DNA from: Podarcis melisellensis
Taxonomy: Eukaryota
Reading direction: 5' to 3' (one strand)
NCBI GenBank assembly: GCA_964234715.1
Contig: OZ174279.1
Length of the DNA stretch: 64,000 bases
The position numbers and the translations under genes were made by a program. Positions 806 through 32,365 of the stretch are shown here, in pieces. Under the pieces are notes generated by a model that saw only the letters and a program-made list of their open reading frames with translations, had not been told where the DNA came from and did not search any database. Position 1 is the first letter of the stretch, and each line of letters starts with the position of its first letter.

Positions 806-1070
806 TGTTATGTAGTGTAGTTTCACCCTGGGCCAACAGGGGGATACTGTATATAGTTTTCACTCAGGTCTGTAGATAGTTTTCACTCAGGTCCGCAGCA
901 GTTATTTTAGGCGGGAACTCTGGGCTGTGGTTGTTACAATGTTGACAGCCGGCTGCCTATAAAAGCAGGCCGGCTGAGCTGTTTGCAGTCAGTTCTATTC
1001 CAGCTTACAAAATAAAGAGCTACTTGAAGAAATCGCTGTGCCGGCTGCTATGTCAACCCACAACTTAATA
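806..1070 (+). repeat. 5' LTR
   Basis: Starts TGTTA, ends TAATA. Contains TATAAAA (~958), AATAAA (~1011) and an 18-bp internal duplication ATAGTTTTCACTCAGGTC. Confidence 0.95.
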
Positions 1071-1071
1071 C

Positions 1072-1089
1072 TGGCGACGAGGATGGGAT
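1072..1089 (+). promoter_or_regulatory. Primer-binding site complementary to the 3' end of tRNA-Ser(GCT)
   Basis: TGGCGACGAGGATGGGAT is the reverse complement of ...AUCCCAUCCUCGUCG-CCA. It lies 1 nt after the LTR. TGGCGACGAG is typical of Mag-like elements. Confidence 0.88.
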
Positions 1090-1312
1090 GGATGGACATC
1101 AGAGCACAGCCAGATGCGGCCAGCCTCTGAACTGAGCTGAATCACTGAGCTGAATCACAGAGCGAAATCACTGAGCGAAATCACTGGGCAGAACCAATTC
1201 AGAGCTGACTGTTCTGGCTAGAGCACTGTGTTCCATCCATCGCCCTTCACGCCGGCATCGGAATCATGGCTTCACTTGTGCCTCTACTGCCGTTTGCACC
1301 AGCCTCTGAATC

Positions 1313-3388
1313 ATGGGACTCCTACCTCGCTGTGAGTTCCGAGACTTAGACGATGCCCTGATGGATCGAATCGTCTGCGGGGTCCGGGACATCCATCTGC
1401 AACGGCGTCTCCTAGCCAAGTCAGACCTCACGCTACAGAAAGCCATTGAGGAGGCTGTGGCCTCAGAAGCTGCTGAACGCTCCGCCCAGGAGATCCGCAA
1501 GTCCAGCAGCCCGCGTCTTGCTAGGGAGCCAGTTCCGGTGCATCATGAAGAGGCCAGCAGTGATGAGGCATCCTCCAGTGAAGACGATGACGTGCACCAG
1601 ACAAAGCGGGAGCGCAGGAAGTTCCAACAGAAGTCCAAGGGCCAACCGGAATGTGCCGGCTGCGGAGGCAACCATTCCCGTGCCAAGTGTCGATTCAGAG
1701 ACGCCATCTGTAGGAAGTGTTCCAGAAGGGGCCACATCGCTAAGGTCTGCCGATCGGCTCCGTCTGACACCCCCCCTTCATCGACTCGCAAGTCCAAGTC
1801 TTCACTCCAGTCTGCCAAGGAAAGTTGTTTCGCTCTCACCAACTGCCGCTGCCCGTCTGGAACCACAATTGGCCAAACCGACTCGCCTACGCGACGCAAG
1901 CTGAACGTCACGGTGCTCATTGAAGGAGCTCCATGTGACATGGAGATCGACACCGGGTCTGCCCTGTCCATCGTGTCATGGAGCACCATCAAAAGACTGG
2001 TACCCAGAGTGTCCAAGAGGCAACTCAACTCCCACCGCGTACACCTGAGAGACTACCAGGGAAACGACATTCCCGTGGTAGGCGTTGGCCGGTTCCGGAT
2101 CGCCTTCAAGGATTTTTCGGGCCTGCTCCGGTTGGTGGTGGTCGAAGGTCAGCGGCCAAGCCTCCTAGGGCTAGACTGGTTTGATGCCCTCGGCCTGGAA
2201 GTCACCGGCATCAACTGCATCTCTAACGCAGAGACTGAGGGTCTGGTCAAAGACTTTGCCGAGGTTTTTGACGGCACCTTGGGGCAATATACAGGTACGC
2301 CCATCTCCGTTAGCCTTGATCCACAAGTCTCCCCCATCAAGCTAAAGCCACGCCGGGTTCCCTTTGCTCTCAAGGCTAAGGTGGACGAACAACTGGACAA
2401 ACTGATTGCCCAAGGAGTTTTGGAGCCGGTTGACCACGCCAAGTGGGAAACCCCCATCGTCACGCCTGTCAAGCCAGATGGGTCGGTGAGAATCTGCGCT
2501 GACTACAAGTGCACGATCAACAAGGCACTTCAGCAGCACGCTTATCCGGTTCCTGTTGTCCAACACCTGCTGCATTCCCTGGGTGAGGGTAAGGTCTTCG
2601 CTAAGCTGGACCTTGCCCAAGCCTATCAACAACTGCCAGTCGATGATGCCACTGCTGAAGCCCAGACGATCGTCACCCACCGGGGGGCATTCCGTTGCCG
2701 CCGGTTGCAGTTCGGGGTGAGCGTGGCTCCTGGCATCTTCCAAAGCCTTATGGAGCGTCTCCTGCAAGGGCTTCCGGGCGTGGTACCATATTTTGATGAC
2801 GTCTTGGTGTCTGCAGACTCACACCAGCAGCTGTTCGAGCGCCTCCGTGCCGTGCTGACCAGGTTCCAAGAGGCCGGGCTCAAGGTAAAGAGGGAGAAGT
2901 GCCAGATCGCTGTTCCACAGGTAGAGTTCCTGGGCTATCTTATCGATGCCTCCGGCCTTCACCCAACCACATCCAAGATCCGTGCTAGCCAGCAGGCCCC
3001 CACCCCAAAGAACAAAACGGAGTTGCAGGCATTCCTGGGGCTGCTGAACTTTTATAACATGTTCCTGCCCCACAAAGCCACAGTGGCTGAGCCTCTTCAC
3101 CGACTCCTTAGCACTAAGACGCCTTGGGCCTGGGGTCATCGGGAGACGGCGGCCTTCAACGCGGTCAAGGCTCTCCTTTCTTCAGACAGTGTGCTGGTAC
3201 AGTACAGTGAATCCAGGCCGCTGGTCCTTGCCTGCGACGCCTCACCTTTTGGCATCGGTGCTGTCCTTAGTCACCGTTTCCAGATGGAAGAGAAGCACCG
3301 CTCGCCTACTTTTCCAGGACACTATCTCCGACGGAACGGAATTACAGCCAGCTCGACAAGGAGGCATTGGCACTTGTGGCTGGAGTGA
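1313..3388 (+). CDS. Gag(C-terminal)-protease-reverse transcriptase-start of RNase H; N-terminally deleted and frameshifted at ~3280
   Basis: Two zinc knuckles (CAGCGGNHSRAKC, CRKCSRRGHIAKVC), protease IDTGSA, RT motifs RICADY/LDL/LQFGV/YFDD, RNase H CDAS. The true gag ATG is at 1266 in another frame. Confidence 0.93.
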   Translation: MGLLPRCEFRDLDDALMDRIVCGVRDIHLQRRLLAKSDLTLQKAIEEAVASEAAERSAQEIRKSSSPRLAREPVPVHHEEASSDEASSSEDDDVHQTKRERRKFQQKSKGQPECAGCGGNHSRAKCRFRDAICRKCSRRGHIAKVCRSAPSDTPPSSTRKSKSSLQSAKESCFALTNCRCPSGTTIGQTDSPTRRKLNVTVLIEGAPCDMEIDTGSALSIVSWSTIKRLVPRVSKRQLNSHRVHLRDYQGNDIPVVGVGRFRIAFKDFSGLLRLVVVEGQRPSLLGLDWFDALGLEVTGINCISNAETEGLVKDFAEVFDGTLGQYTGTPISVSLDPQVSPIKLKPRRVPFALKAKVDEQLDKLIAQGVLEPVDHAKWETPIVTPVKPDGSVRICADYKCTINKALQQHAYPVPVVQHLLHSLGEGKVFAKLDLAQAYQQLPVDDATAEAQTIVTHRGAFRCRRLQFGVSVAPGIFQSLMERLLQGLPGVVPYFDDVLVSADSHQQLFERLRAVLTRFQEAGLKVKREKCQIAVPQVEFLGYLIDASGLHPTTSKIRASQQAPTPKNKTELQAFLGLLNFYNMFLPHKATVAEPLHRLLSTKTPWAWGHRETAAFNAVKALLSSDSVLVQYSESRPLVLACDASPFGIGAVLSHRFQMEEKHRSPTFPGHYLRRNGITASSTRRHWHLWLE

Positions 3389-5085
3389 AGAGGTTCCATG
3401 AATACCTCTATGGCAGGACTTTTGACCTCATCACTGACCACAAGCCACTCCTGGGCCTCCTCGCCGGTGATCGTCCAACTCCACCGGTCCTCTCGCCACG
3501 CATGCTGCGATGGACTGTTTTCCTAGCTGCCTACCACTACCGGCTCATCCATCGCCCGGGGAAATCAATGGGCCATGCCGACGCCCTCAGCCGTTGCCCT
3601 CTTCCAGCATTTGTGGAAGACCCGGCTCCAGCTTCCTCGCTCCTTCTGATTGAGGATCTTCCGGCAGCGCCTGTATCAGCTACCACTGTGGCCTCAGCGT
3701 CTGCCCAGGATCGCACCATCAGCCGGGTGCTCAACTGGGTGTGGAGGGGGTGGCCACAAGGGCCTTTTGCATTGGAGTTCCAGCCCTTCGCAACCAGACA
3801 ACATGAACTCTCAGCTCATCGCGGCTGTCTGCTGTGGGGAGACCGCGTCGTGATTCCCCAGGGACTCCGTCAGCGCGTCCTGGAGTCTCTGCACGTTGGC
3901 CACCCGGGAATTGTCAAAATGAAGGCATTGGCTCGGTGTTACGTCTGGTGGCCTAATATGGACGATGCCATCACTGCCTGGGTGTCCGCCTGTCAAGCGT
4001 GCCAAGAGTCGAGGCCTGCACCACCGGCAGCTAAGGGACACACCTGGGAGACGCCAAAGACACCCTGGTCGAGGGTGCACATCGATCTGGCTGGCCCCTT
4101 TCACGGCCGGACCTTTATGGTAGTGGTGGACGCCTATTCCAAATGGCTGGAGGTCGCCCTGATGCCCTCCACCACTACCGAAGCTGTCATCCGGGTGCTG
4201 CGAGGCCTGTTTGCAACGCATGGGTGTCCTGATGTCCTTGTCTCTGACAACGGACCGCAGTTCACGTCAGGCACCTTTGAGTGGTATATTTTGGGACTGG
4301 GCATCCGCCATGCCCTAACGGCACCCTTTCATCCATCCAGCAACGGGCAAGCGGAAAGAATGGTGCGCTCGGCAAAAGAGGCACTGGCGCGCCTGGACCG
4401 GGGAGACTGGCATGAGCGGGTCGCCGAATACTTGTTCGTGCAACACATCACCCCTCATGCGGCCACAGGGAGGAGTCCTGCTGAACTGCTTATGGGCCGC
4501 CGCCTCAGGTCACCGCTCGACCGGCTACACCCGGACTTTGCCGTGGCTGAACCCCCAGGCTGTGCCAACGCGCCACGGTCATTTGTCCCAGGAAACCAGG
4601 TCTTTGCCCGGAACTATGTGGGGGACATTCCTTGGGTGCCAGCCACAGTAGTGGGAGTCACTGGACCTCGCTCGTACCAGGTGGCACTCGAAGATGGACG
4701 CTTGTGGCGACGGCACATAGACCAGCTTAGGCGCAGGGTTGGGAACTTGGACACTACCGAGGTGCCCCCAACTGCGCTTGCAGCTCCAGAAGAGACACGT
4801 ACAGATGGCGAGGCCCCACCTACACCTCCCTCGCAAACTGCCAGCGTGGAGCCAAACCAAGCCGCTTCAGAACAGACTCAGACCACTCCACTTGCGGAGG
4901 CTCCACCCACAGCAGCGGATCCAGGGGAGTTGGTTCCAATGCCACCTAGGGTCGCACCACAGCCTCAGCAAGAACTGTGTGGCCCTCCGGACTTGGCTAC
5001 CAGTCCCCGGCGGTCTGGCAGAGTTTCCAAGCGCCCAACTTATTTAAAGGACTATGTTGTTGGACATGTATCACTGTTGGTCTAA
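3367..5085 (+). CDS. RNase H C-terminal part, integrase and Pro-rich tail; homologous frame starts at ~3280
   Basis: TDHKPL and ADALSR motifs, HHCC zinc finger (HVGH...CQAC), DDE core (HIDLAG, SDNG, GQAER), GPRSY, C-terminal RRSGR..P..LKDY. Confidence 0.93.
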   Translation: MALVAGVKRFHEYLYGRTFDLITDHKPLLGLLAGDRPTPPVLSPRMLRWTVFLAAYHYRLIHRPGKSMGHADALSRCPLPAFVEDPAPASSLLLIEDLPAAPVSATTVASASAQDRTISRVLNWVWRGWPQGPFALEFQPFATRQHELSAHRGCLLWGDRVVIPQGLRQRVLESLHVGHPGIVKMKALARCYVWWPNMDDAITAWVSACQACQESRPAPPAAKGHTWETPKTPWSRVHIDLAGPFHGRTFMVVVDAYSKWLEVALMPSTTTEAVIRVLRGLFATHGCPDVLVSDNGPQFTSGTFEWYILGLGIRHALTAPFHPSSNGQAERMVRSAKEALARLDRGDWHERVAEYLFVQHITPHAATGRSPAELLMGRRLRSPLDRLHPDFAVAEPPGCANAPRSFVPGNQVFARNYVGDIPWVPATVVGVTGPRSYQVALEDGRLWRRHIDQLRRRVGNLDTTEVPPTALAAPEETRTDGEAPPTPPSQTASVEPNQAASEQTQTTPLAEAPPTAADPGELVPMPPRVAPQPQQELCGPPDLATSPRRSGRVSKRPTYLKDYVVGHVSLLV

Positions 5086-5186
5086 GTATGGGAAATGTAA
5101 CCGATATGCTTTTGTGCCTAATTGAACCATTACGCGTAGTGCTGTATATAAGGAAACCATTACGATTGTAACTAACACCTTATCTC

Positions 5187-5198
5187 GGTGGGGAGGGG
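5187..5198 (+). promoter_or_regulatory. Polypurine tract
   Basis: GGTGGGGAGGGG immediately before the 3' LTR. Confidence 0.85.
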
Positions 5199-5463
5199 TG
5201 TTATGTAGTGTAGTTTCACCCTGGGCCAACAGGGGGATACTGTATATAGTTTTCACTCAGGTCTGTAGATAGTTTTCACTCAGGTCCGCAGCAGTTATTT
5301 TAGGCGGGAACTCTGGGCTGTGGTTGTTACAATGTTGACAGCCGGCTGCCTATAAAAGCAGGCCGGCTGAGCTGTTTGCAGTCAGTTCTATTCCAGCTTA
5401 CAAAATAAAGAGCTACTTGAAGAAATCGCTGTGCCGGCTGCTATGTCAACCCACAACTTAATA
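5199..5463 (+). repeat. 3' LTR
   Basis: Identical to 806-1070 by eye comparison. Confidence 0.95.
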
Positions 5464-30280: not shown

Positions 30281-31212
30281 CTTTTTTATGGCACTTCACA
30301 AATTCACACCTACAGGACTCATTAGTAAAATGCTACACGTACAAAATTTGTATGCCATGATGCGCGTGATCACATATACCAGGATTGCTTCCCCCTCCTG
30401 CCCTGGCAACATTTTAGCAAGGCATGCTAAAATATATGCCTTTTGGTACTGTAAAGGTACAGAAAAGATGCAAATTAGCCCAAAGTAAAAACACAGGGCA
30501 TAACAAATGCACAAGAAGATAAAGTAACAGAACCATGGCAGTTCAATCATCCCTAGTTGGAAGTCATCAAGGATAGACAAAAGAAACCCGCCGCCACAGG
30601 CTCAGACTTGTACAAATAGGTGTTATTTGTACAGAACGCTTTTAGCGTCATCTGACAGCTCCTTACAGAGTACCCAGTGAGAGGGAAGAATATATCTATA
30701 TCCCCCAAAGTCCTTTTATAGTTATGCATGCATTTGGCAGAGAGAACAGTTTGACTGAAGCTATAAAATCTAGCATTTGAGCTTATATTTCTCCCACTGA
30801 CTGCCAAACATTCTTCATTCCTTTCAGTTCACTCTAGCAAACTAAACAAGAAACCAAAGGAGAGCCACAAGTTTGTCTTTGGCTAGAAGGGAGACTGAAG
30901 GAGTACAATTGCCGGCCAGGTGGGTGGGGGGGACCACCCCCGGTTGAGTTACTGTGAGCTAAAAGAACTTCCTTCACAAAAAGAAACAAGATGTCCTAGC
31001 AAGTATAACTCTAATCCAGTAGCAGGAATATATCGTAAACAGGTTGCCTCCTGTGTCCATCTACTGGCTGCCACTGCTAAGGCCATCAGAGGGAGGTGCA
31101 TCAGCACTCCTGCACCATGCCTGGGTACAGCTGCAGTGGAAAGTTCCTGCTCTGCATATGACATTAGTAGGGGCTGATACCCCTGCTTGCTTTGGTCACC
31201 ACCCCGACCCCT

Positions 31213-31791
31213 TGTGATGGCCTGGGATTCAGACTCAGAGGCTGAACCTGAGGAATCCCAGCCTGCACAGGATTCCCCGCCTCCAGAACCAGCTGAGCTG
31301 GGGCATGAGCCTGAAGGGTCCTCACCTGTGCTGGATCCTCAGGTGCAGGCACCAGCTGAGTCTACTCTGGCTCCTGAGGTGATGGAGGACCCATTGCCTG
31401 CAGGTGCTCCACTCTCAGCCCCATCAGGGGAAGCTGAGGTTGCCTCTGGGTCCGGTAACCCTCCAGCCTCTCCTGAGCTGCAGAGGCTCAAGGCAGAGAG
31501 GCGGAGGGAACTAAGTTCCTGCAGGAGGAGTGCTTGCCTCCAGGCCAGGAGAGGCAAGTCACCTGTGGACCGGGGCTGCCCTATGCCTCGGGGCAGATAA
31601 AAGCCAGCCAGCCCCAGTCCCAAGTTGTGGGAGCAACATTGTTGGTAGCCAGTTCCTGCCTGAGCTCCTGACCTCACCTGACTCCCTGCCTTGGACCCAG
31701 CTTCAGCTTTGATGGACTGCCTCCATACTGCACCCTTGACTTCGGACTGGACTTGGACCTCGCCTCACGGTTAACCCATGGGACCAGCACA
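31213..31791 (+). mobile_element. Solo-LTR-like element carrying an uninterrupted 127-aa U3 ORF
   Basis: TGTG...CACA termini and GATAAAA TATA-like box at ~31596. TSD ambiguous (CCCCT/CACCT if the end is 31789). Confidence 0.7.
31217..31600 (+). CDS. Hypothetical LTR-encoded acidic/Pro-rich/basic small protein
   Basis: ATG at LTR position 5 with G at +4. Open for 127 codons. The stop lies in the TATA-like box. No expression evidence. Confidence 0.35.
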   Translation: MAWDSDSEAEPEESQPAQDSPPPEPAELGHEPEGSSPVLDPQVQAPAESTLAPEVMEDPLPAGAPLSAPSGEAEVASGSGNPPASPELQRLKAERRRELSSCRRSACLQARRGKSPVDRGCPMPRGR

Positions 31792-31890
31792 CCTGCCCAC
31801 CCCTCCAAATAATTAGTTTGTTCTGTTTTAATGGTTTTTTACATCTGATTGCATATATGTTGTTGTATGCTTCCCCGAGAGGTCAGTGTA

Positions 31891-32365
31891 TGTTAGGCAG
31901 CAGAGGAACCAACCCCCACAACAGCTTGCCAGGAATGGACAAGACAAGGAAAGGGCCTTACCATCTGCTTTTTATTCAATATTCACAGAGAGAGGCTTGG
32001 GAATGCAGCCTCTTGGAATAATGGTGTTATCCTGAGTGACTCTCCACCCACTCTGTCCCTCCCACTTCCTCATGCATCATCGTTAAGGGCCCTTTGCCTT
32101 TGAGCTCTTTGCTCTCCTACTTTCAATGCTCGCTGGATTCTGGGAGGGGGTCGGGAATGCTTTCTAAAGACACTGTGTCCACCAGCTGTTGCCCCCTGGT
32201 GCTTCTTCTTCCTCTCCCATTATCTCCCAGCTTTCCCTCTCATCTTCCTCTGAGCTGTGGCCTCCCTCTACCCCCTGTTGTAATTCTGAACTGTCTTCTT
32301 CTTCTCTGGAAGGGTCAGGCTGGGGAGGCGTTCTCCACCATTCCTCCTCTGCCCAGTCCCTGACA
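31891..32365 (-). mobile_element. Solo LTR (475 bp) with a 5' end resembling the 529 element
   Basis: On the minus strand TGTCA...TAACA. TSD GTGTA/GTATA. AATAAA present. Starts TGTCAGGGACTGG versus TGTCATGGACTGG. Confidence 0.75.

Follow-up and report, generated by a model that had tools for sequence, protein, structure and literature searches.

The window analysed here, a 64,000-nucleotide stretch of Podarcis melisellensis DNA, carries a 579-bp solo LTR (31213 to 31791; TGTGATGG...CCAGCACA) that belongs to an old subfamily, designated A, of a Ty3/Gypsy chromovirus. An ATG at LTR position 5 begins a frame that stays open for 127 codons (31217 to 31600) and stops inside a TATA-like box, GATAAAA (31596 to 31602); in these respects, and in the peptide itself with its CRRSACL, an earlier description made from the letters of the window (the sequence-only reading) was confirmed. 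The frame encodes an acidic, Pro-rich linker that is predicted to be disordered (31217 to 31468) and differs in length between subfamilies by 6, 18, and 30 nt, followed by a Ser-Pro, a predicted helix, and a basic run (31469 to 31555) overlapped by a GC-box-like word, GGCGGAG, at 31500. The site of an RRSARL motif lies at 31523 to 31540; the window copy is broken at its anchor position and does not read RRSARL. The start of R is placed at 31627 to 31637, in sequence nearly complementary to that which follows the 5' LTR in full-length copies, as in self-priming. The left flank (31208 to 31212) is a degraded target-site duplication, with mismatches to 31792 to 31796 at three of five positions. 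All of these features were assigned to the plus strand. A second solo LTR, from a different chromovirus lineage, lies 100 bp away on the minus strand (31891 to 32365) between 5-bp flanks with one mismatch; it holds an acidic frame in the same phase, which starts without an ATG and is disrupted ahead of the basic run. Elsewhere in the window, a young LTR element of another kind (806 to 5463) has 265-bp repeats sharing 100% identity that enclose frames of 692 and 604 codons.

A first look at the 1.57-Gb genome gave 2,934 LTR candidates, of which 40 were scored and 30 fetched. The 39 other scored copies share 88 to 94% identity with the window LTR. As 27 of the 30 fetched copies have 5-bp flanks with no more than one mismatch, most copies of this large family are solo LTRs, as is the window copy. 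Copies of subfamily A diverge by 6.2% in U3 (16 open-frame copies), and the LTR pair of one full-length A-like copy is identical at 511 of 543 positions, both pointing to an old expansion. As a dead solo LTR the window copy is unremarkable, and its 127-codon frame (31217 to 31600) is probably unread. When the 388 nt were base shuffled, an equally long open frame was found in 11% of shuffles; thus, the frame by itself is weak evidence. Searched alone, the ORF gave one weak Pfam match (E = 0.1) and no usable match in the ESM Atlas, and no tandem repeat was found within it.

Full-length parents, which the sequence-only reading had proposed to look for, were found. A polypurine-tract pattern search returned 152 3' LTRs, and most of the 12 longer loci examined span approximately 5 kb from LTR start to LTR start, with LTR pairs sharing 98 to 100% identity. 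In two natural full-length frames, Pfam identified gag, protease, reverse transcriptase (RT), RNase H (RH), integrase (IN), SH3, and chromodomain, all within a single frame whose end lies in the LTR. The order is gag-PR-RT-RH-IN; env is absent, and there is no room for it because the pol frame extends into the 3' LTR. The chromodomain (PF00385; E = 1e-14) has three aromatic residues, Y, W, and Y, placing it in group I, and folds in AlphaFold2 with a pLDDT of 84 to 94. In all three copies checked, a near-complement of the sequence behind the 5' LTR follows the TATA-like box after about 30 nt, a self-priming layout that the cited portion of the source gives for the Tf1/Sushi group (PMC6317226). 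From the position of this site, RNA would start near 31627, so the frame would occupy U3 and lie out of reach of a solo LTR's own promoter; the earlier suggestion that it is readable only from a 3' LTR copy thus holds. Judged by these domains and sites, the parent is a Ty3/Gypsy chromovirus with Tf1/Sushi features rather than a retrovirus; the Tf1/Sushi group was assigned from features, the SH3-plus-chromodomain tree of 39 rows containing no named references. In the youngest lineage (L072:4518-9245 and 40 further rows), gag and pol occupy a single frame; L072 lacks the segment in which sister lineages carry the gag stop and the GGGAAAC slip site.

The U3 frame is very probably the C-terminal tail of integrase/Pol, an acidic linker followed by a basic run, because pol in 3' LTR copies stays open across the chromodomain and the polypurine tract and leads straight into the U3 ORF; in full-length relatives, 31217 to 31600 corresponds to the integrase tail behind the chromodomain. 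By match length, a hand count of the 100 junctions listed (162 were found) gave 61 in frame and 22 and 17 in the two other phases; the two youngest groups had 40 in-frame junctions among 56 and 19 among 29, an older group 2 among 15. Counted per distinct 3' LTR with an anchor, which omits three 3' LTRs without one, 18 of 29 were in frame in subfamily B, 13 of 19 in C, and 8 of 20 in D/E. A single frame of 1,575 codons, covering everything from gag through the whole tail, is present in 41 of 150 rows, with a further 11 broken at a G-run alone (both hand counts). In subfamily A, none of the three tract-bearing copies found reads through, all being decayed. Gene models of Podarcis muralis include the fused tail with RRSARL in five of the six chromodomain-bearing members of a 15-member cluster. 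RNA reads from a related organism reached a depth of at most 5 over pol and fell on both strands over the LTR; over pol, those of run X23 were almost all in the orientation expected of sense RNA, while those of runs X24 and X21 were mixed.

The phase of the junction is set by this G-run, the longest homopolymer of the element, which shifts in both directions. Off-phase G-runs occur on all three B haplotypes and hence in more than one clade, a pattern suggestive of recurrent slippage or of errors in assembly. If the G-run lacks one base, the pol stop TGA overlaps the ATG of the U3 frame (TGATG). L066, a young copy (LTRs identical at 694 of 696 positions) of a mostly off-phase group, has a long pol frame that ends at the LTR start. 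In two adjacent copies, L050 and L051, a short G-run is accompanied by an extra base just upstream, which brings pol and the tail back into frame.

To the extent that codon comparisons reveal it, the tail is under selection as a protein, a conclusion we regard as well founded. The 158 LTR matches were deduplicated to 125, of which 89 have an open frame; leaving out a mosaic and a lone intermediate gave the 87 analysed. Net dN/dS, calculated as the between-group minus the within-group pairwise means, was 0.47 to 0.69 between subfamilies with kappa 1 and 0.55 to 0.81 with kappa 3; for A against B it was 0.51 (0.35 to 0.77) and 0.60 (0.40 to 0.86), respectively. Confidence intervals reached 1 in 8 of 16 cases. 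Inside subfamily A, dN/dS was near 1 (0.87 to 1.02), the value that decay after insertion would give. The remaining sense frames gave values above 1, a mirror effect that is not independent. Third positions accounted for 62 of 130 differences in four independent contrasts (p of about 5e-4), compared with 35% inside A, in an approximate test that uses rounded net values. The predictions that net dN/dS between subfamilies would fall below 1 and that indels would keep the frame were thus both borne out: lengths from LTR start to motif fall into classes of 258, 276, 300, and 306 nt and are in phase in 106 of the 112 measurable family 1 LTRs (the family of the window copy; 125 in the set), whereas R/U5 lengths fall into 17 classes spread over all phases. 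The motif served as anchor for these lengths; a TATA anchor includes a 1-nt difference at the extreme end of the frame. Family 2 has its own classes of 211, 217, 229, 232, and 238, in phase in 24 of 28 (30 loci, ten of them from one tandem region). These ten family 2 solo LTRs (L133 to L142; contig C4, 98.7 to 99.1 Mb) likely ride on a large tandem repeat, as several are about 17.7 kb apart. Integrase and chromodomain gave dN/dS of 0.11 to 0.13, by comparison with which constraint on the tail is weak. On these sequence measures, the tail is under loose, linker-like selection, with moderate purifying selection between subfamilies.

The sequence-only reading had restored an RRSARL motif in the window ORF by reverting two codons. 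RRSARL is indeed read unmodified by many natural copies; in the window copy it is broken, and the motif is confined to one family. RRSAR is unbroken in 88 of 125 family 1 LTRs (13 of 30 in A, 34 of 36 in B, 19 of 22 in C, and 22 of 37 in D/E, with one A copy binned with D/E in this count). In other lineages RRSxR was found in none of 14 rows and RRxxRL in three of 14. Shuffling produced RRSARL in 0.009% of cases for the whole tail and in 0.25% for the basic 32-mer, and the looser RRSxR[LI] in 2% of basic 32-mer shuffles. Five subfamily representatives of family 1 all have RRSARL, while the three residues ahead of it vary. However, the codons of the motif differ among these representatives by only one synonymous base, and a GC-box-like word lies inside the basic block, so promoter DNA could account for the constancy of the motif. 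In AlphaFold2 the pLDDT of the tail stayed at about 50 or lower; a single helix of low confidence precedes an unstructured RRSARL. A bipartite nuclear localization signal (NLS) pattern matched all four family 1 rows and, among the 14 from other lineages, eight.

Searching with a diverged chromodomain identified 30 loci of other chromoviruses, which in the SH3-plus-chromodomain tree form one clade (100/99) separate from family 1 (100/99). Their order is chromodomain, acidic stretch, a Gly-Gly-Asp-Val-like sequence through the tract, and an LTR-coded acidic linker, then Ser-Pro and a basic run. Junctions were found by script in 19 of the 30 loci, 10 of them in the family 1 phase; by inspection the number in that phase is 12, as two LTRs begin with TA. 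Frames remain open for 137 to 228 codons into the LTR in 8 of the 30 loci, a count that leaves out L175, in which 143 open codons enter what is apparently other sequence. In all, about eight further chromovirus lineages of this genome have the same layout, mostly with no ATG: by our grouping, the ATG at the LTR start is missing in six of nine lineages and is present in two others besides family 1. In the six lineages lacking it, the tail would be part of Pol only. Common to these lineages are the Ser-Pro and the basic run, with no invariant column. In 8 of 14 rows of this second clade (L173, L177, L183 to L185, L190, L194, and L196) the tail ends in hydrophobic-x-Cys-Trp-basic, for which no family name was found. 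Beyond this genome, profile searches returned only Podarcis models, one tegu model, in which the chromodomain is followed by a similar junction and an acidic stretch, and one further database protein, which carries the full tail.

The reading we prefer, with a probability of roughly 0.6, is that the solo LTR in the window is a dead remnant of a Gypsy chromovirus of lizards and that its U3 frame is an integrase tail, which in full-length relatives likely provides a further tether to chromatin in addition to the chromodomain. As full-length RNA ends in the 3' LTR, Pol would be translated with the tail, which integrase would then retain, and the acidic linker could serve as a flexible arm. We consider it slightly more likely than not that the tail binds chromatin. 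A more specific and tentative proposal, to which we give slightly less than even weight, is that in family 1 the tail binds the acidic patch through RRSARL, whose arginines would dock on H2A-H2B and leave methylated H3 to be read by the group I chromodomain, the two together keeping the integration complex on nucleosomes. Off-phase copies would make a tail-less integrase or depend on other copies. A bolder and less likely reading is that lizard chromoviruses acquired their LTR-coded integrase tail in parallel with plant centromeric elements, that one family reads the nucleosome at two points (methylated H3 through the chromodomain, the acidic patch through an HMGN-like arginine anchor), and that a slippery G-run ahead of the polypurine tract acts as an on/off switch for the tail between copies.

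The main rival role is nuclear import: the tail would still be part of integrase, with its basic run an import signal or a plain DNA/RNA-binding patch and RRSARL there by chance. The bipartite NLS pattern fits all four family 1 rows and 8 of 14 others, where RRSxR fits none, and the features common to the lineages are Ser-Pro and the basic run; xCW accompanies them in 8 of 14, and no column is invariant. Yet four of the 14 rows (L177, L190, L194, and L196) keep xCW with no NLS pattern, and import does not require xCW; RRSARL, moreover, is constant in the five family 1 representatives in which the three residues ahead of it vary. The two roles are also compatible, and we consider an account by import or plain nucleic acid binding in place of a chromatin tether unlikely.

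HIV Nef and MMTV Sag are encoded inside U3 and read from the 3' LTR as separate proteins with their own mRNAs. The accessory protein of this kind that was first proposed for the lizard LTR was not supported: the lizard frame, likewise U3 coded, is joined to pol, being continuous with integrase in most junctions, and it often lacks a start codon, six of the nine lineages of the same layout having no ATG. A variant in which the small protein is made, also or mainly, from its own ATG by stop-restart at TGATG draws on known stop-start coupling in some RNA viruses and a LINE, on retention of the overlap and the tail frame in one subfamily group (10 of 15 junctions) as well as in the A-type copy L103, and on the ATG in two other lineages. 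It is nevertheless improbable, since the ATG is missing in six of nine lineages, the G-run shifts both ways, as with slippage or assembly error, and the youngest and commonest lineage is fused. More improbable still is an unselected by-product, arising through loss of the pol stop and run-on through a GC-rich U3 conserved as promoter DNA alone. The equally long frames in 11% of shuffles, the many off-phase copies, and the nearly invariant motif DNA would suit it, but it is largely refuted by the excess of third-position differences, net dN/dS below 1 against the neutral control, in-phase length classes in two separate families, and the acidic-then-basic order in two well-separated clades.

The closest precedent is the LTR-coded CR domain of the centromeric CRM retrotransposons of plants, where the architecture is already known. 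In the cited portions of the sources, CRM integrases have an LTR-coded linker and an Arg-rich motif (PMC3059260, PMC11302176), and the CR motif (CHDCR) of CRM group A likewise sits in a chromovirus with a pol that reaches into the 3' LTR (PMC3059260, PMC3605345, PMC11302176, PMC6317226). Both have a poorly conserved spacer and then an Arg-rich motif with a helix, and chromatin targeting has been proposed for both. As described there, however, CR replaces the chromodomain, whereas the lizard tail comes after an intact group I chromodomain, and CRM primes with tRNA-Met, in contrast to the self-priming layout of the lizard element. No TRARAR/K core of the CRM CR type was found in the lizard tails, which retain the chromodomain, and lizard copies occur on all large contigs; the likeness is one of layout, by description. 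With the Tf1/Sushi group (V-clade), as far as the cited text extends, the lizard element shares domain order, group I chromodomain, self-priming complement, and 5-bp duplications (PMC6317226, PMC3601003), and in neither was a tRNA-like primer site seen. Of 24 other matches, 19 stop no more than 85 residues from the WKGY of the chromodomain or just past it; none of the five longer ones has an acidic-then-basic tail by eye, compared with 110 to 230 residues following in the lizard element.

For HMGN2, the modeled acidic-patch core is RRSAR, anchored by its fifth residue; Dsup and yeast Dot5 use RRSSRL and RRSARI to bind there, according to the cited parts of these sources (PMC12487698, PMC13347269). 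Lizard RRSARL resembles these and the HMGN RRSARLSA in having Arg at positions 1, 2, and 5 in a disordered setting (PMC12487698, PMC13347269); young lizard copies match the HMGN motif at seven of eight residues and have a Pro in front, as in Dsup. Unlike in HMGN, the lizard motif, known here from sequence, is on an integrase and differs at position 7. Mobile-element peptides that tether to the acidic patch are described, in the source's cited portion, for KSHV LANA and for the chromatin-binding sequence of foamy virus Gag, which steers integration in this way (PMC6282019); these differ in motif and are on a latency protein and Gag, while the lizard motif is on an integrase.

Within a literature search whose coverage excluded most subscription journals and repeat-database reports, no vertebrate chromovirus with a chromodomain and an LTR-coded integrase tail, and no HMGN-like motif on an integrase, was found described; automatic gene models already hold the pol-tail fusion, without comment. 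Integrase C termini determine insertion sites of LTR elements, including target choice in Arabidopsis elements (PMC11735389), and what the CR domain of plants binds to is described as not yet identified (PMC11302176), each as far as the cited parts of these papers go. With a vertebrate parallel that has a recognizable nucleosome motif, a 35-residue peptide is enough to test the idea; if true, a retrotransposon integrase would join the acidic-patch binders. Protein constraint on the U3 of these very common lizard LTRs also matters to any use of solo LTRs as neutral or solely regulatory DNA. One contig, C19 (L074 to L078, L107, and L114), has an abundance of chromovirus copies from many lineages and holds a 5.9-kb tandem array together with numerous near-identical truncated copies; as a guess, it may be a W chromosome.
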